DNA of 64,000 bases from Candidatus Acetothermia bacterium (lineage in GTDB: Bacteria; Bipolaricaulota; Bipolaricaulia; RBG-16-55-9; DRXL01). Each line of letters opens with the position of its first letter. The stretch's first letter is position 1. This document shows positions 5,543 to 40,196 of this stretch, piece by piece. A program made the translations under genes and the position numbers. The notes beneath the pieces are model-generated. The model worked only from the letters and a program-made list of their open reading frames with translations, was not told the origin of the DNA and did not search any database. The DNA lies in the NCBI GenBank assembly GCA_022683945.1, contig JAJHSH010000049.1, positions 12,681 through 76,680 of the forward strand. The letters are read 5' to 3'.

Positions 5543-7186
5543 TTATCTGGGTATCAGGGCCAAGGCTGCGGCGATGGGGCGTCGGCTGCCGATCAGCGTT
5601 CTCTGCGCGCCTTGGCGAAAGAGCAGCGCGCTGGAAGAGCCGCCGTCGAGGGCCAGCGCATCGCGCGCGCCCAGAGCCTTCATCAGCGAGGCCAGAGTCT
5701 GTAAATCCACTCCTACGCTGGTGCTGTCTTTGACGACGGTGACCAAGAGCAGCTCGTCGGATTCTGTGAGGGCGAAGACGCTGCGCGCGGCGAGCGCGCG
5801 GGCGAACTCGTCCGAAAAGCTTTCGGCTTTGATATCGAGTACGATCTGACCGTCGCGCAGCAACAACGGACCCGCGCTGACGGCCTCGCGGACGAAGGGC
5901 AGCGCCGGCTCCAGTCTCTGAGAGATCTCGATGCGCTCGCCGGGGCGCACTCCTCCTAGGCGACTACGGGCCGCTCCCGTCGCCACCAAGAGCGTCGTCT
6001 CCCCATCGGGCAAGACGATACTGTTCTCGCTCACGCTCAGCACTAAATTGCCGCGCAAGCGCACAGCTTTTATGGGGAGATCTCTGCGTATGGGTAGCGC
6101 ATATCGGTTCGTGTACAGAAAGAGCCCGTTGGTGTGGGGAGGGCGGTTTACACCGTCAATTGCGACGCGCTGGCCCAGAATATAAGCGCTGAGCGTCAGC
6201 TTGGGCGCGACAAAATCCAGATCGCCGAAGAGCGTGATCGCGAGGGTGCCGCGCCGGCCATGGGGAGCGCTCTGGAGCAGGCCGTCTTTGATTAAGAGTC
6301 CGATGGGGAGTTGGCTCTGCGGGTCAAAAAAATTGGCGTTGATGGCGGCAAGGGCTTGGGAGGCCAGCTGATCGAGCGGGGCGAGCGAGCCGATCCCATC
6401 GGGCGGCAAGAGCGTCACCAAGCGGTAGCGCTCCTTCCAATGAGAGATCTTGAGATAGCGTAAACTCACCGGGCCGGCGAGCGTGACGGCGCGCGCGTGC
6501 AGATAGAGAATATCTTCGTTGATGCGCGTCTGGGTCTCTGTGCGCAAGAGCGCTCTGGACTCTGAGGGCATCGGTGCGACGATGGGGCGCAGCCAGAGGC
6601 TGAACTCGCGCTCCGATTCTATGACCGTTGCTTGCCAACTTGTCGTTGCGTTGATGGGGAGATGGGCGCGCAGCACGCCGGGCTCATCGGGTGAGAACCT
6701 CACACCCTCACCCCATCCCTCTCCCTGCGAGGGAGAGGGGGAATGGACGTGAAAGAATCTTATCGTCACCGGTTGAGCTTTGGTCTGAAGCTCGAAGGGC
6801 ACTCTGGCGTCAAAAGTGAAGATCACACTGTTATGAGAGAGCGTGCGCACCGCGCGCAGCCGCGCCGGCGCGCTCCAAAGATGATACTCACTGCCCAGTT
6901 TAAATAAGCGAATATCAGCGATCTGGGCCAGTCTTTCTAGCTCTATATAGAGCGTCGGGCCGCGCGCGTGCAGCTCTTCGGATTTCAAAGAGAGCCTGCG
7001 TCCCAGTCCCCAGCGCAACAACACACTGCCGTCATCGTCTCTGATGAGATCCATGCCCAAGCGGCGGGCTATCTCGTGTAGGGAGACCAGAGTCTTGCTC
7101 TCTTGTATGAGTATGGGGACTCTGAGCGTATAGCCGTTGAGAAAGAGCTTGGGGGCTTGGGCAGAAGTGTTGGCGGCGCAGAGCAA
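5543..7186 (-). CDS. Phosphodiester glycosidase family protein with an N-terminal copper-amine-oxidase-like stalk domain. The start is uncertain; a signal peptide is encoded upstream of the TTG start.
   Basis: C-terminal NAGPA-like LDGGSSSAL motif. Upstream in-frame sequence KRFFILLGLGVLLCAANTSA looks like a signal peptide. The gene contains an in-frame palindromic-element insertion (SPSPSQGEGWGEG). Confidence 0.6.
   Translation of the reverse strand: MLCAANTSAQAPKLFLNGYTLRVPILIQESKTLVSLHEIARRLGMDLIRDDDGSVLLRWGLGRRLSLKSEELHARGPTLYIELERLAQIADIRLFKLGSEYHLWSAPARLRAVRTLSHNSVIFTFDARVPFELQTKAQPVTIRFFHVHSPSPSQGEGWGEGVRFSPDEPGVLRAHLPINATTSWQATVIESEREFSLWLRPIVAPMPSESRALLRTETQTRINEDILYLHARAVTLAGPVSLRYLKISHWKERYRLVTLLPPDGIGSLAPLDQLASQALAAINANFFDPQSQLPIGLLIKDGLLQSAPHGRRGTLAITLFGDLDFVAPKLTLSAYILGQRVAIDGVNRPPHTNGLFLYTNRYALPIRRDLPIKAVRLRGNLVLSVSENSIVLPDGETTLLVATGAARSRLGGVRPGERIEISQRLEPALPFVREAVSAGPLLLRDGQIVLDIKAESFSDEFARALAARSVFALTESDELLLVTVVKDSTSVGVDLQTLASLMKALGARDALALDGGSSSALLFRQGAQRTLIGSRRPIAAALALIPR
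6699..6745. repeat. GC-rich compound palindromic element, copy a, in-frame within the glycosidase gene
   Basis: cacaccctcacccc-atcc-ctctccc-tgcga-gggagaggggg. Encodes HSPSPSQGEGWGEGV on the minus strand. Confidence 0.8.
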
Positions 7187-7218
7187 GACTCCCAGCCCAA
7201 GCAGTATGAAAAATCGCT

Positions 7219-7689
7219 TCAGAGGGACGAGCTTGACGATGCTCCCTCCTCCTCTACGTGAATGCGCACGCTCGCCGTGATCTCTTTATAGAGACTGATC
7301 TGTACCGTGTGCGCACCGAGCGCTTCGATGGGCGTCTCTAGAACAATTTTGCTCTTCTCTAGCTCGATATTGAGCTTTTGCAGGATCTCTTCGGCGATCT
7401 CCTCGCGGCGCACCGAGCTGTAGAGTACCCCGTCGTGGGCGCGACGCTTAAAAGTCAGCGTGAAGCCGTCGAGCTTCGCTTGGGCGGCGCGGGCCCAGGC
7501 TTCGCGTTGCTGGAGTTCCGTGGCGCGACGCTCGCGGGCTTTCTTGAACTGACTAACTGTATGCGGCATAGGGAGGACGGCGAGCTTGCGCGGGAAGAGA
7601 TAATTTCGCGCGTAGCCGTCCGCGACTTTGACAAGATCTCCGGGTTCGCCTAATTTCTCGACGCTTTGGGTCAACAGCACTTCTATCAT
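7219..7689 (-). CDS. rplI: 50S ribosomal protein L9
   Basis: MIEVLLTQSVEKLGEPGDLVKVADGYARNYLFPRKLAV matches the L9 N-domain. Confidence 0.9.
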   Translation of the reverse strand: MIEVLLTQSVEKLGEPGDLVKVADGYARNYLFPRKLAVLPMPHTVSQFKKARERRATELQQREAWARAAQAKLDGFTLTFKRRAHDGVLYSSVRREEIAEEILQKLNIELEKSKIVLETPIEALGAHTVQISLYKEITASVRIHVEEEGASSSSSL

Positions 7690-7767
7690 AGCGAGACTCC
7701 TCCTAAGATCTGGCGATGAGATTTGTCTATTCTACCGGCCAGAACGGAGGACTTCCACCGCTCTCTG

Positions 7768-7810
7768 CTCCCTCTCCCTTGTAGGGAGAGGGTTAGGGGT
7801 GAGGGTGTAT
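7768..7810. repeat. GC-rich compound palindromic element, copy b, intergenic between rplI and folP
   Basis: ccctctccc-ttgta-gggagaggg-tta-ggggtgagggtgt. Confidence 0.8.
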
Positions 7811-7845
7811 ATATTTCATGCTATAGTAATAGCGGGTGAACTCTA

Positions 7846-8706
7846 ATGACCGATGTCCTCTCGGAGTTGGGAAAGCGCACCCTCGTGATGGGGATTCTGA
7901 ACGTCACTCCGGACTCGTTCTCCGATGGGGGACGGTTTTACAGTCTCCCAGAGGCGCTGGCGCACGCCCGACGATTGATCGCCGAAGGCGCAGATATTAT
8001 AGATATTGGGGGCGAGTCCACACGACCGGGAGCGCAGCCCGTCTCGTCAGACGAAGAGCTGCGCCGTGTCGTGCCCGTCGTGCGCGCCGTGCATCAAGAG
8101 TTCCCCCATATCCCCATCTCGATAGATACTTGCAAAGCTACCGTTGCCGAAGCAGCTTTAGAAGCCGGCGCGACGATTCTCAATGAGATCAGCGCGCTGC
8201 GCTTCGATCTCCAGATGGCCAAAGTAGCTGCGCAGGCGCGCGTCCCCGTGGTCTTGATGCACATGAAGGGCGAGCCCAGAACGATGCAGCAGAACCCGAT
8301 TTACAGTGACGTTGTCACGGAGATCAAAGAGTTCTTGCGTGAACGCATGGCGTTTGCGCGCGCGCAGGGGATCGAGCAGATTTGGCTTGATCCCGGCATC
8401 GGGTTTGGCAAGCGCGTCGCGCACAATATCGAGATTTTAAGAGGCTTGGGCGAGCTGAGAGAGTTAAGCTGCCCGATCTTGATTGGCACGTCGCGCAAGT
8501 TCTTTGTTGGGCGTTTAGGAGCGACGCGCTCGGAGCCGTTGCCCGTCACCGAGCGTCTGGAGGGCACGATCGCGAGTAATATCATCGCGGTGCTCAACGG
8601 GGCGCAGATCGTGCGCGTACACGATGTAGCCTCTATGAAGAGAGCGTTGGCTATCGCCGATGCCGTGCGCTATGGCTGGGAAGAAGAGAAGTATGCTCAG
8701 ACTTAA
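7846..8706 (+). CDS. folP: Dihydropteroate synthase
   Basis: VMGILNVTPDSFSDGG ... DIIDIGGESTRPGA, the pterin-binding domain signature. Confidence 0.9.
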   Translation: MTDVLSELGKRTLVMGILNVTPDSFSDGGRFYSLPEALAHARRLIAEGADIIDIGGESTRPGAQPVSSDEELRRVVPVVRAVHQEFPHIPISIDTCKATVAEAALEAGATILNEISALRFDLQMAKVAAQARVPVVLMHMKGEPRTMQQNPIYSDVVTEIKEFLRERMAFARAQGIEQIWLDPGIGFGKRVAHNIEILRGLGELRELSCPILIGTSRKFFVGRLGATRSEPLPVTERLEGTIASNIIAVLNGAQIVRVHDVASMKRALAIADAVRYGWEEEKYAQT

Positions 8707-10306
8707 AGGGTTGGGGGGCGGCTTATTGTTGGGTTTTGGCGTGGTGGGGCTGGGATTGGGAGCGCTCTATCTGGTGCCCCACTATCTGCAGCCCATCTTC
8801 GCGCCCGTCTATCGCACGGAGCACTTCGAGATCTATTATCACCGAGATTCGCAGATCGCCAAGAGTATTGCCGAGTGGGGGGATCGGCTCGAACAAGAGC
8901 TGGCTCAAGCGCTGATGACGCTGGAGATCAAGTCCGATAGGCTCTCACTGCCCATCGAAGTCTTAGCCGCCGATGATCGTCCGAGACTGGCTCAAGAGAT
9001 TCAACGACGCCGCAACCCCTATCGCGGCGGTCTGCCTAAAGCGTTCTTGGGGATCAGTTCCGACCAAGAGATACGCGCTCCGATGCTGGGGTTTCTCTTG
9101 CGCAAGGTCTGGGGGAGTCCGTCGTATCGGTTCTTGCGCGTCGGCCTGATCGCGGCGCTCACGCAACCGCCGTTGGAGCCTCTGGTCGCAGCACTGCCTG
9201 AGAGATTGAGCTTCACGCTGGAGGAGCTGCTGCGCTGGGAGAGACGCGGAGGCTTTACGGGCTCTAGTCTCATAAACTGGGAGGACGATCTCGTCTTTCC
9301 GTCGGAGCCTTTGGCCCAGGCGCACGCGACGACGCTGGTGCGGGTGCTCTTAGAGCTGGGAGGGCACTCTCGGCTCCGACAGCTCTGGAGACTGAATTCT
9401 TTTGAAGTAGCGATTCGCTCTGTCTACGGACTGACGCGCGAAGAGCTAGAAAGCCATTGGCGGAGGTGGCTGGACGAAGAAGGGCGAGCGACATCTGAGT
9501 ATAATTTTTATCGGGGGAAATATCTGGCGGCTATCGGGAGGCGAGAAGAGGCCGAGCGCCGGCTGGAGAGGGCGCGTGCAGAGGGCGACGAGCGTGCGCG
9601 TGTAGAACTGGAGAGGCTGCGCTGCGAGCTGCCTGCCAGAGAGAAAGAGTCTTGCGCTTGTTCGCGGCTCTGTGGCGCGAGCGAGAATTTCATCATAAAT
9701 TATTCTGAAGATGAAGATTTGGAAGCAGAAGCTCCAAAGGTACTCGTGCAGGCCGAGGCGAGCTTGGCTCACGTCTTAGGGCGTTTGGGCCTAACCCGCG
9801 ATCAACTGCCCTCTTCGTTGGTGATCTTTCTGCACGCTGAAGACGCGTCAAGTTTTTCTCTCACTGACGCTCTGCGTGGCCTCGTGCATCTAGAAGTAAG
9901 AGATCCGATCGGTTATGCGATCGCGCGGGTGGTCGTGCAGCATTGGCAGAAACACCAGACATATTCGGAAGTTTTGCGTCGCGGGCTCGCGTACTATCTG
10001 GATCGCTCTGGACAGAACTATCTGGAAGAGGCTGAGAGATTGTCCATGACTGCAGATTGGGTGCCCTTCGCCTCTCTGGATTTTGAGGCGTATAAATTTG
10101 AGTCGGTCCGCATCGGAGCTGCAGCAATGGTCGGTTATCTCTTGGAGAGCCGAGGGATAGAAAAGCTGCGCGAGCTTTGGATAGAGACGGCGCCCTTGGG
10201 AGGGGATCGCTCTTTGGATGGTGCGCTGCGCGCTGTCTACGGCCTCACGCGCGAGCAGCTCGAACGCGAGCTGATTGCACAATGGACTCGAGACGCAAAA
10301 CCGTGA
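8693..10306 (+). CDS. Hypothetical membrane-anchored protein with an internal tandem duplication. Alternative start at 8660.
   Basis: N-terminal TM helix. The two halves each begin HFEIYY / NFIINY and end VYGLTREELE / VYGLTREQLE. Confidence 0.5.
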   Translation: MLRLKGLGGGLLLGFGVVGLGLGALYLVPHYLQPIFAPVYRTEHFEIYYHRDSQIAKSIAEWGDRLEQELAQALMTLEIKSDRLSLPIEVLAADDRPRLAQEIQRRRNPYRGGLPKAFLGISSDQEIRAPMLGFLLRKVWGSPSYRFLRVGLIAALTQPPLEPLVAALPERLSFTLEELLRWERRGGFTGSSLINWEDDLVFPSEPLAQAHATTLVRVLLELGGHSRLRQLWRLNSFEVAIRSVYGLTREELESHWRRWLDEEGRATSEYNFYRGKYLAAIGRREEAERRLERARAEGDERARVELERLRCELPAREKESCACSRLCGASENFIINYSEDEDLEAEAPKVLVQAEASLAHVLGRLGLTRDQLPSSLVIFLHAEDASSFSLTDALRGLVHLEVRDPIGYAIARVVVQHWQKHQTYSEVLRRGLAYYLDRSGQNYLEEAERLSMTADWVPFASLDFEAYKFESVRIGAAAMVGYLLESRGIEKLRELWIETAPLGGDRSLDGALRAVYGLTREQLERELIAQWTRDAKP

Positions 10307-10331
10307 TAACATAGAGATCCAAGGAGACCAG

Positions 10332-10826
10332 ATGCTAGATCTCAAGAGATTGCGCGCTACCCCCGATCGTCCGCAGAAGATTGACGAATCCTATGAGTCC
10401 GTAACAGAAGCGAGCTTCTCCCTTCAGGGAAAGGTGCGGGTTCAGGGAGAAGCCGTTCATCATCGGCAGAAGATCTCGGTTGGACTTCAGATAGAAGCGA
10501 CGGTCGTTCAAGCGTGTAGTCGTTGTTTGAATTCTGTTCTCTCAGCGCTTCGCTTGGACGAACTCTTAGAATTTCGTCCCGCGAGCGCTGTAGAGGACCC
10601 TCTGACGAGTGAAGTCTATATCTATAATTTAGAAGAAGCGATGCTCGATCTCAAGCCCTATGTGATGGGATTGATCTCTAACAGTTTGACGGTCAAGCCG
10701 CTCTGTCGCCCGGACTGTAAGGGGCTATGTCCTAAGTGTGGACAAGACTTGAATACAAAGTTGTGCGGTTGCGTGCGCGAGTCCCAAGGCGATCCGCGCT
10801 TCAAGGTGCTCGAAAAATTATTATAA
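10332..10826 (+). CDS. yceD: YceD/DUF177 family protein (large-subunit rRNA accumulation protein). Alternative start at 10275.
   Basis: C-terminal CRPDCKGLCPKCGQDLNTKLCGC cysteine cluster typical of DUF177. Confidence 0.7.
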   Translation: MLDLKRLRATPDRPQKIDESYESVTEASFSLQGKVRVQGEAVHHRQKISVGLQIEATVVQACSRCLNSVLSALRLDELLEFRPASAVEDPLTSEVYIYNLEEAMLDLKPYVMGLISNSLTVKPLCRPDCKGLCPKCGQDLNTKLCGCVRESQGDPRFKVLEKLL

Positions 10827-10828
10827 AT

Positions 10829-11332
10829 ATGCGGGTTTTGGGGATAGATCCCGGTCTGGCGACGACGGGGTATGCGGTCTTAGAGTGTGAGAGAGCGCCG
10901 CGCGTCGTAGAAGTGGGGGTGATTCGCACTCCAGCGGATGAGCTGCTTAGTGAACGATTGCACACGCTCTACAGTGACATGCGGCGATTGATCGAAGAGT
11001 ATCGTCCCGATGTGCTGGCGATCGAAGAGCTTTTTTTCAGTCAGAATCGCACAACAGCGATGGTCGTGGCGCAGGCGCGCGGTGTGGTTCTACTCGCGGC
11101 GCACGGGCTGACTGTCACGAGTTACACGCCCTTGCAGGTGAAGCTACGCATTGCGGGCTATGGGCACGCGAAGAAGCCGCAGATGCAAAAGATGATCCAG
11201 CGACTGCTTCACTTAAAAGAACTTCCTAAGCCCGACGACGCTGCCGATGCGCTGGCCGTGGCGCTTTGTTATATGTTAGAGATGCGCTCACCGCTGCGTA
11301 GGGCGCTGAGCAAGCGAGCGTCGAGAGAGTGA
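10829..11332 (+). CDS. ruvC: Crossover junction endodeoxyribonuclease RuvC
   Basis: MRVLGIDPGLATTGYAVLE ... LAIEELFF ... DAADALAVALC, the RuvC catalytic motifs. Confidence 0.9.
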   Translation: MRVLGIDPGLATTGYAVLECERAPRVVEVGVIRTPADELLSERLHTLYSDMRRLIEEYRPDVLAIEELFFSQNRTTAMVVAQARGVVLLAAHGLTVTSYTPLQVKLRIAGYGHAKKPQMQKMIQRLLHLKELPKPDDAADALAVALCYMLEMRSPLRRALSKRASRE

Positions 11333-11338
11333 AATGAA

Positions 11339-12355
11339 TTATACGAACACAACTATCCCTGCGCCTTTCACAATCTCTCCCACGCGATATGCTCGCTGCC
11401 CGCGGCTCTCTAAGAACTTGAGCACCGTCTCAGCTTGCTCTTTGGGCACGAGGACGATAAATCCCAAGCCCATATTGAAGACCTCCCACAGTTCGTCTTC
11501 AGGTACGTCTCCCCAGTCTTGCAACGCTCTGAAGAGCTTGGGGATCGGCCAGAGACCCTTCTGGACGACAGCGTCTACTCTGTCGTTGAGGGCACGCACG
11601 AGATTCCCGGCAATCCCGCCCCCGGTGATGTGCGCCGCGCCCTTCACGGAGAACTTCTCCCAAAGCTTGAGCACGACGTTGGAGTAGATCGGCATCGGGG
11701 CTAATAAGAGTTCTCCCAGCGGGCGCTCCCCGACTTCAGCATAAATCTTTCTCAGATCGAGTTTCTCTCTCTCTCTAATCTTGCGGATGAGCGAGAACCC
11801 GTTACAGTGTGGCCCACTTGAAGCGATCCCCATCAGAACATCCCCCGGCTCGACTCTCTCTGGATCGGGGATCCGGGAGCGCTCGACGATCCCCACGACG
11901 AAGCCCACTAGCTCAAAATCATCAGCGCGCACGAAGAGATCAGGCAGCTGTGCCGTCTCGCCCCCGATGAGCGCACAGCCCGCTTCATCACAGGCTTTCA
12001 CGAGCTCCGTGAAGATGGCCTTGCTCACTTCTAAGTCCAATTGGGCTGTCGCATAGTAGTCTAAAAAGAAGAGGGGCTTCGCTCCTAAGCAGACCAGATC
12101 GTTGACGTTCATGGCGACCAAGTCTTGACCGAGCCCGTCGAGTTTCCCGTATTCTACGGCGATTCTCGTCTTGGTGCCGATGCCGTCGGTCGAGCTGACG
12201 AGCAGCGGCTCTCGATAGTCTTTGAGAATCTTGCTCAAATCATAAAGCGCTGCGAAGGGGCCGATCTGCGCGCCGCCCTTCGGATTGAGCTTCTTAATAA
12301 GCTCGATGAGCTTATCGGCTTGGTCTCTATCTACACCGGCGTCTTGATAACGCAT
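11339..12355 (-). CDS. purM: Phosphoribosylformylglycinamidine cyclo-ligase (AIR synthetase)
   Basis: MRYQDAGVDRDQADKLIELIK... full-length PurM homolog. Confidence 0.9.
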   Translation of the reverse strand: MRYQDAGVDRDQADKLIELIKKLNPKGGAQIGPFAALYDLSKILKDYREPLLVSSTDGIGTKTRIAVEYGKLDGLGQDLVAMNVNDLVCLGAKPLFFLDYYATAQLDLEVSKAIFTELVKACDEAGCALIGGETAQLPDLFVRADDFELVGFVVGIVERSRIPDPERVEPGDVLMGIASSGPHCNGFSLIRKIREREKLDLRKIYAEVGERPLGELLLAPMPIYSNVVLKLWEKFSVKGAAHITGGGIAGNLVRALNDRVDAVVQKGLWPIPKLFRALQDWGDVPEDELWEVFNMGLGFIVLVPKEQAETVLKFLESRGQRAYRVGEIVKGAGIVVFV

Positions 12356-12361
12356 ATGTGC

Positions 12362-13759
12362 TCACTTCGGCAGCAGATATTCTAACGCCGGATGCTCGCT
12401 GGGGAGGCTCTCTTCAGGATAGCGTGCCGTAAAGCACGACGTGCAGAAATTCTCAGAATCTTTCGCGCAGTACTGCAGTTCCTCAACCGTGAGATAGATC
12501 ACCGAATCGGCCCCCATAAAGCGCGTGATCTCCGGGATCGTCCGAGTTGACGCTACTAATTCTTCACGGGTGGGCATATCTATTCCGAAGTAACAGGGCG
12601 CGACAATCGGAGGAGAGGCTATACGCAAATGGACTTCTCTTGCGCCGAACTCTCTCAAGACGTGGACGATCGCTCGTGAAGTCGTCCCCCGCACAATCGA
12701 ATCGTCCACCAAAGCGATGCAACGGTCTTGCAGCACCTCGCGCAAGGGCAAGAGCTTCATCCGAACTTTGTGAACCCGTGAGGCTTGATAAGGCTCGATG
12801 AAGCTGCGCCCGATATAATGGCTGCGAATCAGCCCGAACTCCAAGGGCTTGTTCAGCCTTCGCGAATACCCCAACGCTGCGGGAAGCCCCGAATCGGGCA
12901 CGGGCACGACAATATCTATCTCGTGCGTCTCTTTTTGCGCTAGGAGATCTCCGCAAGCCTTGCGAAACTCATAGACATTGTGTCCGAAGAGGCGGCTGTC
13001 GGGCCGCGCGAAATAGATGAGCTCAAAGACGCAGTGTCGCCGCGGACGCTGTGGTCCAAAGCGTTGCGAGTGCAGGCCCTCGCGGTCTATAATAATCACT
13101 TCGCCGGGCTCGATCTCACGCACGCACTCTGCGCCGACCATATCGAGCGCCGCCGTCTCCGAAGTGACGATCCAGTCTTCGTTGCGGCGTCCCAGTACCA
13201 GCGGACGAAACCCGAAGGGGTCGCGGAAGGCGATCAGACGATCCCCATCTATCAACAAGGCCGAGTACGCGCCCAAGACTTTCGCAGCGAGCGCGTTCAA
13301 CTTCTCTGCGGGGCTCTTTCCGAGCGCACGAGCGTATAGGTGCAGCAAGCTCTCTGTATCCGAAGTGCTGTTAAAATAGACGCCGTCGCTCAGAAGCTCT
13401 TCGCGCAGCTGGGTAGCATTCGAGAGATTGCCGTTATGGGCGAGGGCCAGCCAGCGCCCGGCTCTTCTCAAGATAAAGGGCTGGGCGTTTTCGGGGCGGG
13501 CGCTCTCGCCTTGAGTAGAATAGCGCGTGTGCGCGATCCCGATCTGTCCTTTAAAGAGTCTTACGTTGCCCTTGGCGTAGACGTCTTGGATCAGTCCCAA
13601 GTCTTTATAGCAGCGCAGCTCGCGTCCGTCAGAGAGAGCAAAGCCGGCGGCCTCTTGGCCGCGATGCTGGAGGGCAAAGAGCCCCAAGTGCAAGACTTCA
13701 GCTATCTCTGAAGACCGACTGTAGATCCCAAAGAGGCCGCACTCGTCTTTGAGCTTCAT
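12362..13759 (-). CDS. purF: Amidophosphoribosyltransferase
   Basis: Ntn-hydrolase start MKLKDECGLFGIY, PRTase domain, and C-terminal Cys ligands CTSCF for a 4Fe-4S cluster. Confidence 0.9.
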   Translation of the reverse strand: MKLKDECGLFGIYSRSSEIAEVLHLGLFALQHRGQEAAGFALSDGRELRCYKDLGLIQDVYAKGNVRLFKGQIGIAHTRYSTQGESARPENAQPFILRRAGRWLALAHNGNLSNATQLREELLSDGVYFNSTSDTESLLHLYARALGKSPAEKLNALAAKVLGAYSALLIDGDRLIAFRDPFGFRPLVLGRRNEDWIVTSETAALDMVGAECVREIEPGEVIIIDREGLHSQRFGPQRPRRHCVFELIYFARPDSRLFGHNVYEFRKACGDLLAQKETHEIDIVVPVPDSGLPAALGYSRRLNKPLEFGLIRSHYIGRSFIEPYQASRVHKVRMKLLPLREVLQDRCIALVDDSIVRGTTSRAIVHVLREFGAREVHLRIASPPIVAPCYFGIDMPTREELVASTRTIPEITRFMGADSVIYLTVEELQYCAKDSENFCTSCFTARYPEESLPSEHPALEYLLPK

Positions 13760-16047
13760 AAGTTCAGCGCCGATTCATAAGCATTGCGTAGCTCTTCGAC
13801 GGAGATCTCCTGACCGTTCAGTTCCAGCTGACGCCCGCTCACCGTGCCCAAAAATCTATACGGCACATCCAAGCTATTCAGTATCTCTTGGAAAGCGCTT
13901 TTGTTCTCTGGTGGGATAGTCACAATAAAGCGCGACGGCCACTCTCCAAAGAGACCCTCTTCTTCCGAGAGATCGTCCAGCTCGAGCTTCGCCCCTAGCC
14001 CCCGCGCAAAGCCCTTCTCGGCAAGGGCTACTAAAAGCCCCCCCTCAGAGATGTCATGGGCACTTCTCAATAGGGGAGAACGGCCGTTCGCTCCTCCCAG
14101 CAGAAGCATCACGCGCAGAAGCCGGCGCTCTAGCTCTAAATCTGTGGGCTCCAGCTCGCCGCCGATCACGTTATAGAAGACTTTCAGATATTCACTGCCC
14201 CCACTCTTGCCCGACAGCTTCCCGATCAGATAGAGCAAATCCCCCTCGCGTTGGAACCCCATCGGCACTCTGTGGACGATATCTGTGAGCAGCCCTATCA
14301 TCCCCACTATAGGAGTCGGGTAGATCTTTCTCCTCTCGGACTGATTATAGAGACTGACGTTCCCCGACACAAACGGCAGCTCAAAAGCTTGCGCCGCTTG
14401 GGCCATCCCCCGAACTGTCTGATCGAGCGACCATAAGACTTCGGGATCGGTGGGGTTGGCGAAGTTCAGACAGTCCGTGATCCCGATGGGCTCCGCGCCG
14501 ACGCTTAAAAGATTATGGACGGCTTCACAGACGGCACGTATCCCGCCTTCATAGGGATCTAGAAAACAGTAGCGTCCGTTGCCGCCCATCGTCACTGCTA
14601 ATGCGAAGCGTTCGCCCTTGACGCGCAAGAGCGCGGCGTCGTGCGCTCCGGGGCCGATCACGGTATTCGTCTGCACGGTGTGATCGTACTGTTCGTAGAC
14701 CCAGCGCTTGGAACCGATTGTTGGAGAGTGCAAGAGCTTTTTCAGCGCTTCGCGCCAGCCGGTGACTGAAGTCACCGGCTGAGCAGGTAGAAGCGTGCTC
14801 AAGCACGCTCCTTCAGCCCCCTTGAGTGGGCTTAAATCTTCTGAGCCGGGCGCTTCAGCGCGCGGCTCCGGGACCCCCTCCACCAACGCACGGACCGGCA
14901 CTTCGGCGATCGTCCGGCCTTCGTGTCGAATTCTATAGACTCTCTCACGGATCACTTCCCCAATCACGTCGGCTTCTAGACCCCACTTGCGATAGATCTT
15001 CAGAAATTTCTGCTCGGAGCCGTCTTTTACGCAGAGCACCATGCGTTCTTGTGATTCTGATAAGAGAATCTCATAGGGGGTCATCTTCTCGGCGCGTAAC
15101 GGTATCTCTTCTATATCTATGGCCATTCCCACTTCGCCGCGGGCAGCCATCTCCGGCGGCGCCGTCGAGAGCCCGCCCGCGCCCAGATCTTGCAGCCCGA
15201 TCAATTCTGAGAGTTGACAGGCTTCGAGCGTCGCTTCTATTAATAATTTGCCCGTGAAGGGATCGCCGACTTGGACGTTGGGGCGCTTCTCTTCGGTTTC
15301 GCCCAAGAGATCTTCCGAAGCAAACGTCGCTCCGTGAATGCCGTCGCGCCCGGTGCGCGCGCCGACTAAGAGAATTCTGTTCCCCACGCCCTGCGCGACC
15401 GCGCGCTTTAACTCAGATTTTTTGAGCAGACCCACGCACATCGTGTTCACCAGACAGTTGTCGGTATAGGCCTCTTCGAAACAAATATCTCCGCCGACGG
15501 TGGGAATCCCGATGCAGTTCCCATAATGGGCGATCCCCGCGACGACGCCCTCTAAGAGACGCTGCGACCTCTCCCCTAACCCCTCCCCTAAAGAGGGAGG
15601 GGAACTCCCCTTCCCTTTAGGGAAGGGGAAGGGGGATAGGTCCCCAAATCTCAGCGAATCTAAAAGCGCGATGGGCCGCGCGCCCATACTGAGAATATCT
15701 CGGATAATCCCGCCCACGCCCGTCGCCGCGCCGTTGAAGGGCTCTACTGCCGAAGGGTGATTATGGCTCTCGACTTTGAAGACGACGCACCAGTTATTTT
15801 CCAGCTCCAAAACCCCGGCGTTCTCCCCCGGCCCTTGCAAGACTCTCTTGCCCGTCGTCGGCAGCAGTTTTAAGAATCTCTTAGAGCTTTTGTAGCTACA
15901 GTGCTCGGACCAGTTGAGCGAAAAAAGCCCCAGTTCTAACTCGTTTGGCTCGCGACCTAAGAGCTCGCAGATCGTTTGGAATTCGCGGGCGGAGAGCCCG
16001 TGCCGCTGCGCCAGAGCGAGCTTGGTCATAGTTTTGGAGGCCCTCAC
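13756..16047 (-). CDS. purL: Phosphoribosylformylglycinamidine synthase subunit PurL (FGAM synthase II). GTG start overlaps the purQ stop; alternative ATG start at 16029.
   Basis: WSEHCSYKSSKRFL ... NHPSAVEPFNGAATGVGG. Carries an in-frame 22-aa insert SPFPFPKGKGSSPPSLGEGLGE from a palindromic element. Confidence 0.9.
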   Translation of the reverse strand: MRASKTMTKLALAQRHGLSAREFQTICELLGREPNELELGLFSLNWSEHCSYKSSKRFLKLLPTTGKRVLQGPGENAGVLELENNWCVVFKVESHNHPSAVEPFNGAATGVGGIIRDILSMGARPIALLDSLRFGDLSPFPFPKGKGSSPPSLGEGLGERSQRLLEGVVAGIAHYGNCIGIPTVGGDICFEEAYTDNCLVNTMCVGLLKKSELKRAVAQGVGNRILLVGARTGRDGIHGATFASEDLLGETEEKRPNVQVGDPFTGKLLIEATLEACQLSELIGLQDLGAGGLSTAPPEMAARGEVGMAIDIEEIPLRAEKMTPYEILLSESQERMVLCVKDGSEQKFLKIYRKWGLEADVIGEVIRERVYRIRHEGRTIAEVPVRALVEGVPEPRAEAPGSEDLSPLKGAEGACLSTLLPAQPVTSVTGWREALKKLLHSPTIGSKRWVYEQYDHTVQTNTVIGPGAHDAALLRVKGERFALAVTMGGNGRYCFLDPYEGGIRAVCEAVHNLLSVGAEPIGITDCLNFANPTDPEVLWSLDQTVRGMAQAAQAFELPFVSGNVSLYNQSERRKIYPTPIVGMIGLLTDIVHRVPMGFQREGDLLYLIGKLSGKSGGSEYLKVFYNVIGGELEPTDLELERRLLRVMLLLGGANGRSPLLRSAHDISEGGLLVALAEKGFARGLGAKLELDDLSEEEGLFGEWPSRFIVTIPPENKSAFQEILNSLDVPYRFLGTVSGRQLELNGQEISVEELRNAYESALNL
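15568..15640. repeat. Divergent double-hairpin variant of the GC-rich palindromic element, copy c, in-frame inside purL
   Basis: cccctcccc-taaaga-ggggagggg and ccccttccc-ttta-gggaagggg tandem hairpins. Confidence 0.7.
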
Positions 16048-16108
16048 CCCGCCTGCGCCACCCCTCTCCCGTGAGTTATCACGGGAGAGGGGCCGGGGGT
16101 GAGGGCCT
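16041..16108. repeat. Full-length GC-rich compound palindromic element, copy d, overlapping the purQ 3' end and the purL start
   Basis: ccctcacccc ... cccctctccc-gtgagttatcac-gggagagggg-ccg-ggggtgaggg. Encodes the PurQ tail PGPSPVITHGRGVAQAG. Confidence 0.8.
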
Positions 16109-16763
16109 GTGCCAACGCTTGAAAGATCTTCAGCCCCTCCCCCAATCCCAATAGTCTCTCGCAGTTGCGCTCCGGGTGGGGCATCATCCCGAAGACCGTC
16201 CCCGTCTCGTCCATGATCCCCGCTATGCTTTCGAGAGAGCCGTTGGGGTTCTCTTCATAATATCTGAAGAGTATCTGACGGTTTCTCTTCAGTCTCTCTA
16301 TAGTCTCTTCAGAAGCGATATAGCGCCCCTCGCCGTGGGCGATGGGCAGCTCTAAGAGCTCGCCCTCGCGACAGAGCTGCGTGAACGGAGTGTAGGCGTT
16401 CTCGACACGCAGTTTGACCGACTTGCAGATAAATCTACGATTTATATTAGGCGCGAGCGCGCCGGGCAGAAGCCCCGCCTCGGTGAGAACCTGAAAGCCG
16501 TTGCAGATGCCCAGCACCAGTCCGCGTTGCTTCTCGATATACTCGGGAAGGGCCTGCACCACTGGGGCAAAGCGCGCGATCGCGCCTGCCCGAAGATAGT
16601 CCCCATAGGCGAAGCCTCCGGGCAAGAGAATCAGATCGTATTCGCTCAGATCTCTCTCGCGGTACCACAGCAGCGTCGTCTCGATCCCTAAGAGATCTTT
16701 GAGGACATAGTACGCATCGAGATCGCAGTTCGATCCGGGGAAGACGACGACAGCAGCGTGCAT
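16044..16763 (-). CDS. purQ: Phosphoribosylformylglycinamidine synthase glutaminase subunit PurQ
   Basis: MHAAVVVFPGSNCD ... GICNGFQ ... HPER, a class I glutamine amidotransferase triad. The C-terminus is about 10 aa longer than in orthologs. Confidence 0.9.
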   Translation of the reverse strand: MHAAVVVFPGSNCDLDAYYVLKDLLGIETTLLWYRERDLSEYDLILLPGGFAYGDYLRAGAIARFAPVVQALPEYIEKQRGLVLGICNGFQVLTEAGLLPGALAPNINRRFICKSVKLRVENAYTPFTQLCREGELLELPIAHGEGRYIASEETIERLKRNRQILFRYYEENPNGSLESIAGIMDETGTVFGMMPHPERNCERLLGLGEGLKIFQALAQALTPGPSPVITHGRGVAQAG

Positions 16764-17017
16764 TATAATTCCTCCACCTCCACAGAATATCGTTCGATGA
16801 CGGGGTTAGCTAAGAGCTTATGGGCGATCTCGGAGACCCGCTCGCGGGCCTGTGGGAGCGAGACGGCTTTGAGCTTGAATTTCACTAATTTCCCCACGCG
16901 CGTCTGCGAGATATGAGCGAGTCCCAGATCTTTGATGGCCCGTTCGACGGCTTGGCCTTGGGGATCGAGCAATTCCGGCTTGGGTTCGATCAGCACGCGC
17001 ACGGTGAATTCTTTCAT
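16763..17017 (-). CDS. purS: PurS subunit of FGAM synthase
   Basis: 84 aa, MKEFTVRVLIEPKPELLDPQG, PurS fold signature. Confidence 0.9.
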   Translation of the reverse strand: MKEFTVRVLIEPKPELLDPQGQAVERAIKDLGLAHISQTRVGKLVKFKLKAVSLPQARERVSEIAHKLLANPVIERYSVEVEEL

Positions 17018-17748
17018 AAGACCCCCATCCGTCGGGCGACTTCTCTATAAGCGCTGATGAGATCGCCCTTATCTTCGCGAAAGACGTCTTTGTCCAGACT
17101 CTCGTTCGTCTGGGCGTCCCAGAGCCTCATCGTATCGGGGCTGATCTCGTCGGCGAGCAGAATCCCCTCTCCCTTGAAGGGAGAGGGCGCGGGGTGAGGG
17201 TGAGGGTACGGGCGCCCGAACTCGAACTTCATATCTATCAATTGGAGGTCCAACTCTGCGAAATATATCTTGAGGATCTCGTTGGCTCTGAGGGCTTGCT
17301 CTTTGATCTGTGTGAGTTCTCTCTCGGTAGCGAGTCCCATCACTTGGGCGTGGGACTCGCAGAGGAGGGGGTCGCCGAGGGCATCGGACTTATAGAAGAG
17401 TTCTAAGAGTGGGGGCTGGAAGGGCCGACCGCGGACGATTCCTAGTCGTTTGGTGATACTGCCGGTGGCGCGGTTGCGCACGACGACTTCGAGGGGAAGA
17501 ATATGCACGTTGTGGGCTAAGAAGCTCTCTTCGTTGAGTTTTCTGATATAGTGCGAGTCTAAGTTATGAGCGGCGAGCAGCTCGAAGAGTTTGCTGGAGA
17601 TGGTATTGCAGAGCGCGCCTTTTTGGGGGAAGAGGGCGCGTTTGGCGGCGTTTCCGGCGGTAGCGGAGTCTTTGAAAGAGACGATGACGGTATGGGGTTG
17701 TGGGCCGGAGAAGAGCTGTTTGGCTTTGCCGTCGTAGAGTAGTGTCAT
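17014..17748 (-). CDS. purC: Phosphoribosylaminoimidazole-succinocarboxamide synthase (SAICAR synthetase). The ORF extends to 17787; the likely start is MTLLYDGKAK.
   Basis: LYDGKAKQLF ... ADEISPDTMRLWD. Carries an in-frame insert PYPHPHPAPSPFKGEG from a palindromic element. Confidence 0.9.
   Translation of the reverse strand: MTLLYDGKAKQLFSGPQPHTVIVSFKDSATAGNAAKRALFPQKGALCNTISSKLFELLAAHNLDSHYIRKLNEESFLAHNVHILPLEVVVRNRATGSITKRLGIVRGRPFQPPLLELFYKSDALGDPLLCESHAQVMGLATERELTQIKEQALRANEILKIYFAELDLQLIDMKFEFGRPYPHPHPAPSPFKGEGILLADEISPDTMRLWDAQTNESLDKDVFREDKGDLISAYREVARRMGVL
17164..17208. repeat. GC-rich compound palindromic element, copy e, in-frame within purC
   Basis: cccctctccc-ttgaa-gggagaggg-cgc-ggggtgagggtgagggt. 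Confidence 0.8.
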
Positions 17749-17802: not shown

Positions 17803-20800
17803 TCAACGGGGTGAGGTGTATGAGAGGATCTCTTGGTGGAGGGGGATTTGCAGAAAGCGCTGGCGCAGGGCGGGGTCGGTGATGAGAGCTGCTGTCTTTT
17901 GTACTTCTTCTTGGGCTTGGCGCAGGGCGTCTTGGGCTTCGGGGTGGCCGAGAGCTTTGAGAACGCGATAGTGCTGAAAGTGGGCTTGAAGGGCGAACTC
18001 TCCGCTCCATTTATGCTGAGTGAGGAATTGCATGGCTTCGGTGGCGGCTGTGAGAGCATCGGGCAACAGTTTTTGAATGGTTAAGAGCTTACTGAGCGCC
18101 ATCCAACATCGTGCAGTCATATACGGGATCTGTAGAGTTTGCGCAATCGCTAACGCTTGTTGAAGGTGCTTCAGGCTTTCTTCCAGTTTCTGCTGGTTAG
18201 TAAGCGTTTGCCCTAACTCTAATAGGCTTTCGCCTTCTTCGGATTTGGCGTTGAGCGCACGGGCGATCTCCAAAGATCGGTCAAGGCAAACCTGTGCTTG
18301 TAAGAAATCTTGCTGTTCACGATGGAGAATACCCTGCCAACGCAGCATCATCGCTTGACCAGCAAGGTCCTCTAGTTCAACAAAACAACGAAGTGCCTCT
18401 TTGCTCAAAGATTGAGCTTGGTCATATTGCCCTAGCAAGCGGTAGATCTGGGCGAGGTTGCAGAGACTAAATCCTAAGCCAAAGCGGTCGCCCATCTCGC
18501 GGTCAACGTGACAAGCCTGCTCAAGATAGTTCAACGCTTGCTGGTAATCTCCTAAGTAGCGTAGAACTGCACCGATGTTGTTCAGCACCACGCTGGCCTT
18601 TATCAAATCTTTCATATTTTGGTGGATTTGGAGTGCGATCTTATAATGGCTAAGGGCAGATTGGAAGTGTCCGAGCTTTGTAAGAACATTGGCGCAATTA
18701 GTCAATAGATACGCTTCGTGACCTAGATGTTTGGCGCTTCTGGCAAGATTGAGGGCCTGTTCGAGATGCTCTAAAGCTTGTTGATATTCCCCCATAAAGA
18801 AGTAGGTTAATCCTATCTCACTCAAACTGTCTTTGAGCATCTCACGCTCCTGCAGTTGCTGACTCAAGAGATAAGCATCTTGGGCGGACTGGAGAGATTC
18901 CAGATAGCGTCCTAAGCGTCTGTGGATGTGAGCTTGCCGAAGAAGTATCTTGGCTCGATCTCGCTCCTCGATGGTAAGCTGAAGCAACTGGTTTATATCA
19001 TTTTGAGCTACTTTAACCTGTCCAAGTTCGATTGCGAAGCCGATGCGTTGTAACATCAATTCCAGCTCTTTCTCTCTCCACTCACGTTCTGAAAGCCGTC
19101 CTTTGGTTTGTTCTATGATTGCCAGACCACGGGAGGCCAGTTCTAGTCCTTCCCTGTTTTGATAATGCTTATCGCACAAAGCGATGGTTTTGAACACCCA
19201 CTCCAGCGCTCTTTGCGGTTGCCCTCCCCGCTCATAATGCTCTGCCAGCCGCGCCGCTAAGCCCACTACCGTTGGCTCGGTATAGACACTCTCCAACGCC
19301 TGTGCCAGCCGCCGATGCAACCAGAGCTTTCGCGGCCCTTCTAGGGCTCTGTAGATGGCCTCGCGATATTTGTCGTGTGAGAATTCGTATCGCCCCTGAT
19401 GCTCGGTTAAGATTCCCTGAGCGATCAGGTCGTCTAAATGAGCAAAAAGCTCTTCCGATGTGCCCTCCCAAGCACACTCTAACACGTCTAACTCGATCTG
19501 CACGGCGCAGGCGATCAACTGGAGCAAGCGCTGCGCGGCTGGGCCGGCCCGCGCGACGCGATGTTCGATCAACTGCAACACTTGAGGCGGCAACTCCGTC
19601 TCAGCAGGAAGCTGAAGCCGCCACTGAGCGCCGTCGGGGATAAAGCACCCGTTCTCGAAGAGCGACTGCAAGATCGTCGAGAGAAAAAGCGGGTTGCCGG
19701 CGCTCTCGCGATGAAGTCGTTCTGCTGTATTAGTGGCATCAGTGACTCTCTCCAACTTGGTGTCCAAACGGGCGACCAATTCTTGAGTATCGGTTGCTGT
19801 TAAGCGTTTTAAGTCTATCTCTTCGAGCCATTGACGGCGCTGGGCGTGGTCTTTGAGCGTCACCCAGAGAGAGTCGTTCGTGCGTGCGCCCGAACGCACC
19901 GTAGCCAAGATCATCAGCGGGAGATCGGTCCATTTGTCCATCACATAGCAGAGCAGATCTATAGAATCTTCATCGGCCCACTGGAGGTCATCCAGCGCGA
20001 TCAGCAATGGGGCGCGTTGGCGGGCCAGTGCGCAGAGCATCTGAAAGAGCGTCTCGAAGAGCCGATAGGGACGATGCTCTGCCGGCAGAGAGACTTCTTG
20101 GGGCAGTTGTGGGATGACGTTGCACAGGGCAGGAAGGAGCTCAGCGCATTCGGCCAACCACGATCGGTGTAGATGCTCGAGCTTCTCAAGAGAGATTTGT
20201 GAGACCGCCGGTTGCAGTGCCTCCAGCCACGGATGCAACGGCAGGGGATTTTTCAGCTCAAGGCAGCGTCCTGTTAAGAAGAGCGCTTGAACTCTCTCCC
20301 GGGCTTCAGCGCAGAATTCTTCGCAGAGACGGGTCTTCCCCATCCCCGGTTCGCCGGAGACGAGCACCAGCACACCGTGCCCTTCTTGTGCTTTCTGTAG
20401 CGCAGAGCTCAACTGCTGCCATTCGCGGCGACGGCCGCAGAATGGCAGTCGGTGCAATTTCGGAGCGGGCGTGACCGACGGCTCAACAACGATGGGATAG
20501 CGGTCTTGGATCTCTGTAAACTCTCCACGCTGAAGCTGTCTGTAGATCTCTTCCGTCCGTGACGAGGGGTGCTCGCCCAACTCGCGCTCCAGAACTTCGC
20601 GACAACGAAGATAGGCCCGACGGGCTTCGGCGGGTTCTCCTGCACAATGTGCATAGACCATCCATTGACGATAGAGCTGCTCTTGTAACGGTGACTTCTC
20701 GATGGCGCGTCGGACGGTGTGCAGGGCTTCGCGATACCGTCCGCGTTGGGCCAGAGCGTCGGCGAGCTCGCTCAAGAGTTCGACATAGCGCTCGCGCCAG

Positions 20801-30344: not shown

Positions 30345-30364
30345 CCGGATGCTGAAGCATCCGG
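30345..30364. repeat. GGATGCTGAAGCATCC hairpin repeat, copy 1
   Basis: Near-identical 27-nt stretch recurs at 34024. Confidence 0.6.
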
Positions 30365-30449
30365 CTCAGCAGATGGAAGCCCGCTCAAGCGGGCTGTGAG
30401 CGTGCTTGAGCACGCTTGCACCTGGTGAGCCGGTGGATTCATCCACCGG
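30345..30449 (+). other. Cluster of four consecutive stem-loops between the small ORF and coaD, possibly a terminator array or a small structured RNA
   Basis: ccggatgctgaagcatccgg; agcccgctcaagcgggct; agcgtgcttgagcacgct; ccggtggattcatccaccgg. Confidence 0.5.
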
Positions 30450-30486: not shown

Positions 30487-31005
30487 GTGACCAAAGCCCT
30501 CTATCCCGGCAGTTTCGATCCCATCACGTATGGGCATATTGACATCATCAAGAGAGCTCAAAAGCTCTTTGATAGGCTCGTCGTCGCCGTGATGCGCAAC
30601 CCGGACAAAAAAATGCTCTTCACGTTGGAAGAGCGCCATCGTCTTGTTATTGAGGCCCTGCGCGAAGTCAAACTGAACACGATAGAGATCATCACCCATG
30701 ACGGGCTGCTCGTCGATCTCGCTCGCCAATTGCGCGTGGACGCCGTCGTGCGGGGATTGCGCGCCAGCACCGATTTCGAGTACGAGTTTCAGTTGGCGCT
30801 CACCAATCGTGATTTGGATCCCGGCTTTGAGAGCGTCTATCTGATGACCAGTCGAGATTTTTCGTTTATCAGTTCCAGCATCGTCCGCCAAGTGAAGAGT
30901 TACGGAGGAGATGTGCGCCGCTTTGTGCCGGCGAGTGTAGATTTAGCATTAGAAGCGCACTTCAAAGAGCGGCGCACAGAGATGAACGGGCAGAGCCGTT
31001 CGTAG
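30487..31005 (+). CDS. coaD: Phosphopantetheine adenylyltransferase
   Basis: GTG start after an aggaga RBS. ALYPGSFDPITYGHIDII is the (H/T)xGH nucleotidyltransferase motif. The stop TAG lies inside the GTAGGGGC hairpin. Confidence 0.9.
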   Translation: MTKALYPGSFDPITYGHIDIIKRAQKLFDRLVVAVMRNPDKKMLFTLEERHRLVIEALREVKLNTIEIITHDGLLVDLARQLRVDAVVRGLRASTDFEYEFQLALTNRDLDPGFESVYLMTSRDFSFISSSIVRQVKSYGGDVRRFVPASVDLALEAHFKERRTEMNGQSRS

Positions 31006-34329: not shown

Positions 34330-34360
34330 CGTAGGGGCGAACGGCCGTTCGCCCCTACAG
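34330..34360. repeat. GTAGGGGC...GCCCCTAC hairpin, copy 2, downstream of the metalloprotease gene
   Basis: cgtaggggcgaacggccgttcgcccctacag. Confidence 0.7.
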
Positions 34361-40171: not shown

Positions 40172-40196
40172 GGGCGAGGTCACCTTGCCCCTACAG
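40167..40196. repeat. GTAGGGGC...GCCCCTAC hairpin, copy 3, acting as a bidirectional terminator between the DCC gene and the OMP-like gene
   Basis: cgtaggggcgaggtcaccttgcccctacag. Confidence 0.7.

Follow-up and report, generated by a model that had tools for sequence, protein, structure and literature searches.

The 64-kb stretch of DNA analysed here (64,000 nucleotides of contig JAJHSH010000049.1, from a Candidatus Acetothermia bacterium of the Bipolaricaulota; hereafter referred to as the window) contains an intact operon, purC-purS-purQ-purL-purF (12362–17748, minus strand), which is under purifying selection. An earlier note on this DNA had described GC-rich palindromic elements in the operon, in a glycosidase gene and in an intergenic gap. 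Pfam assignments of the window genes (NAGPA phosphodiester glycosidase, rplI, folP, PurF, PurL, PurQ, PurS and PurC) agreed with the host genes named there, namely the glycosidase gene, purL, purQ and purC. As shown below, the elements comprise six short units, here called triplex-motif (TM) units, which belong to a repeat class already known from Escherichia coli. Five of them are coding and in frame (one in the NAGPA gene, two in purL, one in the purQ tail and one in purC), and the sixth is intergenic.

Each unit, ~35–45 nt in length, consists of a pyrimidine arm (CCCTCTCCC), a short loop, a complementary purine arm (GGGAGAGGG) and, after a second loop of 2–4 nt, a G-rich mirror of the purine arm (GGGGTGAGGG). 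The pattern CCCTCTCCC-N3..16-GGGAGAGGG had four matches in the window (6717–6739, 7770–7792, 16062–16091 and 17165–17187) and none in 100 dinucleotide shuffles of it; GGGGTGAGGG stands 2–4 nt beyond one arm in each of these four core copies. A general scan for homopyrimidine/homopurine hairpins returned exactly six, all at 6.7–17.2 kb, as against none in 20 shuffles. These are the four canonical copies and two variant units without the exact shared core, which are arranged as an inverted doublet in purL (15566–15642). In all six, the hairpin is followed by the G-rich mirror block, which confers, as far as the sequence can tell, the potential for a class II purine-motif triplex with this block as the 'third strand'. 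The five palindromic features of the earlier note were all found at the coordinates it had given, and its divergent double hairpin at 15568–15640 corresponds to the purL doublet. The units are as follows.

6699–6745, minus strand: TM copy in frame in the NAGPA gene (5543–7054, minus strand); minus-strand reading CCCCTCTCCC TCGCA GGGAGAGGG AT GGGGTGAGGG TGT; peptide SPSPSQGEGWGEG
7768–7810, plus strand: intergenic TM copy between the divergent rplI (7219–7689, minus strand) and folP (7846–8706, plus strand); reading CCCTCTCCC TTGTA GGGAGAGGG TTA GGGGTGAGGG TGT, the TTA second loop being that of E. coli 'type A' / HPG1
15566–15604, minus strand: variant TM unit, which with the next one forms the purL doublet; sense reading CCCCTCCC TCTTTA GGGGAGGGG TTA GGGGAGAGG
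15605–15642, plus strand: variant TM unit, partner of the preceding one in the purL doublet; reading CCCCTTCCC TTTA GGGAAGGGG AA GGGGGATAGG; the two halves jointly encode SPFPFPKGKGSSPPSLGEGLGE in PurL
16041–16108, symmetric, no strand assigned: TM copy across the 3′ end of purQ, immediately ahead of the purL ATG at 16029; reading CCCTCACCCC-N10-CCCCTCTCCC-N12-GGGAGAGGGG-CCG-GGGGTGAGGG; PurQ tail LTPGPSPVITHGRGVAQAG
17164–17208, plus strand: TM copy in purC, in frame and antisense to the gene (17014–17748, minus strand); peptide PYPHPHPAPSPFKGEG

The copy at 6699–6745 is oriented opposite to the remaining canonical copies. The outer arms of the copy at 16041–16108 pair in a predicted nested hairpin (−35.5 kcal/mol, z = −8.5), as the earlier note had proposed, and the single strand of the purL doublet is predicted to adopt a three-way structure (−30.4 kcal/mol, z = −4.7), both predictions covering Watson–Crick hairpins only. 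Only the symmetric copy at the purQ/purL junction has two pairable GGGGTGAGGG-type blocks, one per side. GGGGTGAGGG is primarily a mirror that co-varies with the purine arm rather than an outer hairpin arm, and it would serve as third strand in an intrastrand triplex or else belong to a G-quadruplex. The window sequence of the copies was found identically in a JGI metagenome contig (Ga0484001_0000067 of 3300045950; 305 kb), in the metagenome-assembled genome (MAG) GCA_022684025.1 at NCBI and in a Logan assembly, and the copies are therefore no assembly artefact. An Rfam scan of the whole window returned two tRNAs only, with no RNA family at the elements.

The units share their design with the TMECO repeats of E. 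coli, formerly known as BoxC and PIT (potential intrastrand triplex) elements (Holder et al., 2015; PMC4666352), for which the earlier accounts cited in that paper are those of Bergler (1992) and Hoyne & Maher (2000/2002). TMECO has the consensus CCCTCNCCC N3–6 GGGNGAGGG N3 GGGNGAGGG, with TTA (type A) or CCG (type B) as the second loop, and was counted in Proteobacteria only (3610 occurrences in 262 genomes), with related G/C-rich motifs in cyanobacteria (PMC4666352). In vitro, the E. coli repeats form an intrastrand triplex of class II (purine motif) that is very stable; they occur often as inverted pairs, are 'always located intergenically' and are tied to local rearrangement among strains (PMC4666352). 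Kaplan et al. (2016; PMC5100583) described GGGAGAGGGTTAGGGTGAGGG and GGGAGAGGGCCGGGGTGAGGG (HPG1/HPG2), which flank open reading frames (ORFs) with 'none within' them, as a switch between G-quadruplex, hairpin and duplex. Enterobacter sp. 638 carries 100 such hairpins, and Salmonella is reported to lack the repeat.

We compared the window units with these descriptions. When one mismatch was allowed, the copies at 6699, 7768 and 17164 matched the TMECO consensus in the arms and the 5-nt first loop; their second loop is 2–4 nt long and their third block starts with GGGG. The copy at 16041 has a first loop of 12 nt, outside N3–6, and the purL doublet has variant arms. Both types of second loop are present, TTA at 7768 and in the purL unit, and CCG at 16041. 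The features that define HPG sequences (four G tracts of at least 3 nt, loops of 1–7 nt and a complementary C-rich tract ~3 nt upstream) were found as GGG-AGA-GGG-N2-4-GGGG-TGA-GGG in four copies, with the C-arm 5–12 nt upstream. The resemblance to BoxC/PIT/TMECO extends to the inverted pairs and to local indels and rearrangements between close strains (see below). In contrast to the E. coli repeats, for which the intergenic location belongs to the description and not to the sequence definition, five of the six window units are translated, and they are in Bipolaricaulota. These results show that the window units are members of the BoxC / PIT / TMECO / HPG1–HPG2 class and not a family private to this genome; the class is present in more than 260 proteobacteria and in many phyla. 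In the window, an already described class of repeats shows a new habit, in-frame coding, in a phylum new for it.

Translated units in intact genes

The pur genes are not frameshifted pseudogenes, a possibility that the earlier note had left to be checked: their Pfam domains are intact, and the ratio of nonsynonymous to synonymous substitution rates (dN/dS) was between 0.1 and 0.4 (purC 0.20, purQ 0.32, purL 0.42, purF 0.10) against the locus L124 of a sister genome (3300045452), 20 kb in length, syntenic with the window and ~97% identical over most blocks. Translation confirmed the insert peptides quoted in the note, and all four intragenic copies named there are read through without a stop in the host frame. 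Each copy is stop-free in two to four of the six frames, so that the stop-free reading is unremarkable, and we rejected it as a sign of special design.

Comparisons with homologues placed additional residues at the units. PurL has ~19 more amino acids than Thermus thermophilus PurL (3VIU) between LRFG and RS..LLxGV, and PurC has 11–12 more than its solved homologues between EFGR and ILLADEISPD. The C-terminal tail of PurQ is ~16–20 amino acids longer than that of Thermotoga maritima PurQ, which exceeds the lengthening of about 10 residues that had been estimated before. In the NAGPA protein, the insert peptide is confined to relatives of at least 75% identity; orthologues at 60% identity, from many Bipolaricaulota, do not have it, and their loop is ~6–10 amino acids shorter. 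The PurC ORF is 257 amino acids long, and the called gene begins at an internal ATG and encodes 244 amino acids. In an AlphaFold model of PurC (mean predicted local distance difference test score, pLDDT, 91.5), the sole segment below 50 is residues 184–193, which is the insert, located at a beta-hairpin turn between two strands. The model shows the PurC insert as a predicted disordered loop. These comparisons, together with the purC allele of L124 described next, support the earlier proposal that the copies are lineage-specific additions in functional genes, at permissive sites.

The database sequence closest to PurC (92% identity, 232 amino acids) has no insert and is encoded at L124. The two purC genes differ by a single clean 36-nt indel (window 17177–17212), and the shorter allele keeps only CAAGGGAGAGGGG (KGEG), with a loop length normal for the family. 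There is no PurC relative between 92% and 73% identity that would place the polarity of this indel; we infer that it is an insertion, and not a partial deletion. In the purQ tail, the 45 nt between the inverted outer arms are inverted in L124 (43 of 45 positions identical to the reverse complement), which turns the tail LTPGPSPVITHGRGVAQAG into LTPAAPPLSRESSRERGRG at constant length. At the purL insert site, L124 has a different variant TM unit in place of the doublet, and the intergenic copy at 7768–7810 is kept (L124 19913–19950). An additional palindromic segment of 116 nt lies between dapA and dapD in L124 (3904–4020) and is missing at ~23738 of the window. It consists of a symmetric TM unit nested in a longer inverted repeat, GCTGACAGCAGATTC ... 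GAATCCGCTGTCAGC, and suggests that there are composite elements larger than the core unit. As judged from the aligned loci, the units are shown to be unstable on a short timescale, with presence/absence, core inversion and replacement between genomes ~97% identical. This pairwise comparison places a repeat-borne indel, an inversion and a replacement in coding sequence within ~3% genome divergence, and is direct evidence for the 'genomic instability' earlier inferred from E. coli strains.

Further variation was found in a second clade of Bipolaricaulota, where the PurC loop after EFGR contains nothing (TAAGA), two G blocks only, a doublet like the purL insert of the window (L208), or a doublet whose interior is replaced by a symmetric canonical unit. 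The purC of L210 has a half unit, GGGGAGGGG-CCG-GGAGAGGGG, with no pyrimidine arm, and several purC and purQ 3′ ends of this clade are lengthened through such units. Since varied units occupy the same PurC and PurQ sites, these sites are permissive hot spots with rapid turnover, and existing G-rich arms seem to attract further units. At the purC 3′ ends of L210 and L211, a symmetric unit is followed by two or three tandem copies of GGGAACGGGTGAGGT (peptide GTGEV repeats), which suggests that the third-strand block can amplify in tandem.

The earlier note had likened the elements to Rickettsia palindromic elements (RPEs). The likeness in behaviour stands: both are palindromic repeats that lie in frame in unrelated housekeeping genes and add surface peptides while function is kept. 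RPEs differ in that they are ~100–150 bp long, are found in Rickettsia only and form ten families defined by conserved peptides (PMC10969869); they share no sequence similarity with the TM units and have no mirror/triplex block. We rejected membership of the RPE family for units of 43–77 nt in a Bipolaricaulota host, whose peptides depend on frame and orientation.

Occurrence across phyla and association with DUF559 genes

To assess the range of the repeat, a collection of species-representative genomes was scanned with GGGAGAGGG-N2-4-GGGGTGAGGG, a query that does not contain the pyrimidine arm. At least 120 stretches were returned. The matches listed include Pseudomonas, Xanthomonas, Enterobacter, Acinetobacter and Bradyrhizobium, and the phyla among them are Proteobacteria, Chloroflexota, Planctomycetota, Verrucomicrobiota, Acidobacteriota, cyanobacteria, Armatimonadota, Bipolaricaulota and others. 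Of the ~140 copies among the matches listed, almost every one has the pyrimidine arm at the expected distance. The pattern was also present at 120 or more loci of viral contigs. One of these, a predicted viral contig (L271, IMG/VR) with a canonical unit, comes from metagenome 3300045950, which is also the source of the contig containing the window. The range of the repeat is much wider than published.

Among the matches listed, 47 of the 142 copies in other genomes are spanned by long stop-free frames. Most of these failed a test of GC content by codon position, and in GC-rich genomes a long spanning ORF was not accepted as evidence that a copy is intragenic. Seven ORFs, with nine copies between them, passed the test. 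In all seven, Pfam domains lie on both sides of the copy in the same frame, or a domain is interrupted by it.

MetRS (metG) of two betaproteobacterial MAGs, with a DUF559 domain flanked by TM units at L005 1324–1777 and L027 2123–2637
Mfd
MeaB-MCM fusion
LpdA, between the lipoyl and FAD domains
LigA, inside the adenylation domain
GH31 enzyme

Being translated is a general, if minority, behaviour of the repeat, and the window stands out with five coding units of six. The repeat is confined neither to Proteobacteria nor to intergenic DNA and can be carried in essential enzymes as disordered loops. Such translated repeats matter for gene annotation, for the interpretation of protein-length variation in MAGs and for claims of 'regulation' by G-quadruplexes or triplexes.

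In the linker of each MetRS gene, two inverted units bracket a DUF559 (PF04480) domain, all in frame. The domain is complete and precedes the C-terminal tRNA-binding domain, an intein-like position, with no sign of splicing. Five DUF559 ORFs in the TM-selected loci lie between two units 380–620 nt apart, the pair being inverted in four cases and direct in Acinetobacter, and at a sixth locus a DUF559 fragment lies beside a unit. We then drew up a second sample of 80 metagenome loci picked by DUF559 homology alone. A TM unit was present within 200 nt in 65 of the 80 loci and on both sides in 40, TM density being ~25-fold higher near the DUF559 gene than more than 200 nt away. The layout TM(+)-gene-TM(−) was found in 35 of the 80, with a median unit length of 433 nt. 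In this layout the sense-strand unit lies a median of 34 nt upstream and the antisense-strand unit a median of 21 nt downstream, with the third strands proximal to the gene, and the G-rich strand precedes the ATG by 10–20 nt, as a ribosome-binding site would. Two of these DUF559 units (L161 and L167), 88% identical, have unrelated flanks; the similarity between them starts and stops no more than 2 nt from the outer edges of the TM copies. At the DUF559-selected loci, 102 of 114 hairpins have a mirror block that matches at 8 or more of 9 positions, and among variant-arm units 52 of 57 show co-variation of the third block with the purine arm (T or A opposite A), as compared with 40–50% for foreign tails. 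One DUF559 subfamily is thus shown to be physically associated with inverted units, strongly and in a stereotyped layout.

The E. coli K-12 DUF559 gene, ycjD, adjoins fabI; a TM-like hairpin lies across its stop codon and a full type-A TM unit ~165 nt downstream. This is presumably the locus at which BoxC was first noticed. A copy of HPG1 at fabI is tabulated by Kaplan et al. (PMC5100583). Of 5426 complete E. coli genomes, 3346 cover ycjD with its flanking units. In the others (e.g. O157:H7), similarity stops ~40 nt before the TM unit and an unrelated efflux-pump island follows, and one strain has ycjD disrupted or duplicated around IS1. A clean empty site for the ycjD unit was rejected; what was seen is variability, not precise excision.

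The DUF559 profile matches PDB 3HRL (E = 2.8e-36) and, weakly, the 'mobile intron protein' 3R3P (E = 4.5e-4). Steczkiewicz et al. (2012; PMC3424549) placed Vsr, DUF559, 3HRL and 3R3P in one clade with a group I intron homing endonuclease. The Vsr / EDxHD I-Bth0305I clade (PDB 1CW0, 3HRL, 3R3P) thus includes a genuine homing endonuclease; it differs from the present case in that its homing endonucleases reside in group I introns, not between triplex-motif repeats. By sequence, the DUF559 proteins here are putative endonucleases with the TM units as a candidate substrate. Milman et al. found DUF559 proteins to be 14-fold enriched among predicted programmed-inversion targets, as is expected of a gene between inverted repeats. 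The endonuclease gene is not part of the published account of BoxC/TMECO (PMC4666352), and in the open-access literature we found no paper that links DUF559 with BoxC/TMECO or gives in-frame copies.

Origin of the units

We consider it probable that the window units are a known, widespread BoxC-type repeat, here a translated passenger in genes and, on our best reading, a derivative of the DUF559 unit comparable to a miniature inverted-repeat transposable element (MITE). Units would have landed, or been retained, in the coding sequence of an uncultured Bipolaricaulota (Acetothermia/OP1) genome with tightly packed genes and would be translated, at surface-permissive positions, into disordered loops or tails that are short and rich in Pro, Ser, Gly and Glu. 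In essential genes, only copies with a length that is a multiple of three and a stop-free host frame would survive. Because the unit is open in two to four of the six frames, this filter is easily passed, and we therefore take the units for passengers, selfish or neutral, and do not regard them as adaptive for the pur genes.

Several other explanations were weighed against this one. That the segments are native low-complexity linkers, or parts of decaying pseudogenes, with no inserted element, is extremely improbable. Pro/Ser/Gly-rich loops are common in proteins and a stop-free reading is not surprising, but the segments are missing from orthologues, from solved structures and, for purC, from a 97%-identical genome; moreover, the same precise palindrome-plus-mirror DNA repeat stands in the intergenic gap at 7768–7810. 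The intact domains, the homologue comparisons, the purC indel and dN/dS values below 1 led us to reject both versions. Regulation is an unlikely, if more serious, explanation: the units would be selected hairpin, G-quadruplex or triplex switches of the pur operon and its neighbours, with the peptides a by-product, and could act by pausing transcription or translation, by stabilising mRNA segments or by coupling purQ and purL translation. It would account for the clustering of six units in 10.5 kb, four of them in one operon, and for the one placed exactly at the junction of the purQ stop and the purL start; the predicted structures are very stable, a switch of this type was proposed by Kaplan et al. 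(PMC5100583), and the G-rich strand of the DUF559 units has the spacing of a ribosome-binding site. However, presence, orientation and sequence vary between ~97%-identical genomes, which leaves the role proposed for HPG1/HPG2 unsupported here. Copies lie on either strand relative to the host gene, the PurC loop of different Bipolaricaulota holds none, half, double or nested units, and PIT elements in E. coli have no promoter or terminator activity and no association with a gene class (PMC4666352).

Somewhat harder still to sustain is repeated local origin without movement of an element, which we regard as quite unlikely. Replication errors at G-rich Gly/Glu codons (GGN GAR GGN), through fold-back or template switching, the correction of quasi-palindromes and gene conversion from other copies, would generate the units in place, and the DUF559 genes would merely accumulate repeats. 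It draws on the 'empty' purC allele, which already has GGGAGAGGGG, the additional 36 nt supplying the exact complement of it plus a third-strand block, and on the L210 half unit without a pyrimidine arm. Core inversion between inverted arms is, in addition, a classic product of template switching or recombination, and no target-site duplication was seen. What this explanation leaves unaccounted for is the near-identical 40-nt design that recurs, with the same TTA/CCG loops, in different phyla, the 25 nt of the purC insert that are not of local origin (CCCGTACCCTCACCCTCACCCCGCG) and the discrete, sharp-ended TM-DUF559-TM units in unrelated contexts.

Under the passenger reading favoured above, the solo units and doublets would be non-autonomous, MITE-like derivatives of the ~430-nt TM-DUF559-TM unit. 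New copies might arise through DUF559, a Vsr-like PD-(D/E)XK endonuclease related to the EDxHD homing endonuclease, acting in trans or, alternatively, through recombination or template switching at existing G-rich arms. We infer both the derivation of solo units from DUF559 cassettes and an action of DUF559 on the units, and give the endonuclease step itself slightly less than an even chance. Still more tentatively, BoxC/TM repeats, for which E. coli has offered no explanation since the 1990s, may both terminate a pan-bacterial selfish element of ~430 nt, as its inverted repeats, and be its non-autonomous offspring. The only gene of this element would encode a DUF559 (Vsr / EDxHD-type) endonuclease that recognises the hairpin-plus-mirror structure. 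The system would cross phyla and colonise even essential coding sequence because its unit is stop-poor and short. Solo units would then have colonised purC, purL and purQ, and the whole endonuclease cassette the betaproteobacterial metG, in frame. If true, TM-DUF559-TM units could explain the whole repeat class. DUF559 is a concrete candidate for the enzyme behind the repeat, which offers a hint to the function of a large DUF family, with E. coli ycjD as a tractable model.

An organisational parallel is provided by the REP repeats, which carry a GTAG head and for which mobilisation by an IS200/IS605-like HUH tyrosine transposase (RAYT) has been proposed. The REP/REPIN-RAYT system, reportedly treated by Nunvar (2010) and Bertels & Rainey (2011), likewise combines a short structured repeat in many solo and doublet copies with a single-copy gene between two inverted copies. 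In the present case, by contrast, the bracketed gene encodes a Vsr-like PD-(D/E)XK protein and the repeat is of the triplex/G-quadruplex type. Membership of the REP/RAYT system was rejected, because Pfam assigns the bracketed gene to DUF559 and the TM units are without a GTAG head.

Several observations weigh against a mobile, DUF559-derived repeat. The association with DUF559 does not prove mobilisation. No DUF559 gene is present in the 64-kb window or the 20-kb L124 locus, and neither contains the TM-DUF559-TM arrangement, from which the window copies would derive as solo units or doublets. The majority of TM copies stand alone, with DUF559 nearby in 6 of the 120 genomic and 2 of the 120 viral loci listed, and 15 of the 80 DUF559-selected loci have no TM unit, in a sample that was seeded from TM-associated DUF559 genes and hence represents one subfamily. 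With respect to the classical MITE criteria, the unit itself is palindromic, and no target-site duplication was seen at the ends of the L161 and L167 units or at the 36-nt purC indel, where there is 1 nt of microhomology only. That the 'empty' purC allele already holds GGGAGAGGGG bears on whether the indel is an insertion or a partial deletion. The confinement of all six units to 10.5 kb of the 64-kb window is unexplained by a purely random passenger model. Finally, Holder et al. found the E. coli repeat unlinked to transposons, phages and plasmids and detected no triplex in vivo in E. coli (PMC4666352).

Other palindromes and neighbouring features

A second palindrome family in the window has a GTAG head (GTAGGGGCGAA...TTCGCCCCTAC) and is REP-like; it is closer to the REPs than the TM units are. 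It gave six matches at no more than one mismatch, as compared with 0.9 expected, including the following positions, and two copies are intergenic.

34331–34358
40168–40194
2794–2804
31002–31012
13988–13998

A near-palindrome of the GTAG family also lies in frame in purL (14072–14095), encoding GGANGRSPL. In L124, a GTAG-family copy is in frame in the aspartate kinase gene (~1804–1850), where the window has a different hairpin. An apparently intergenic gap at 30345–30449 of the window contains three or four different short hairpins (CCGGATGCTGAAGCATCCGG, AGCCCGCTCAAGCGGGCT, AGCGTGCTTGAGCACGCT and CCGGTGGATTCATCCACCGG).

Beside purC, a BTAD-AAA-TPR regulator is encoded at 17803–21285 of the window and at 6467–9952 of L124. 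Its C-terminal TPR part has many small indels and low identity between the two genomes and is far more diverged than the neighbouring genes, which are ~97% identical.

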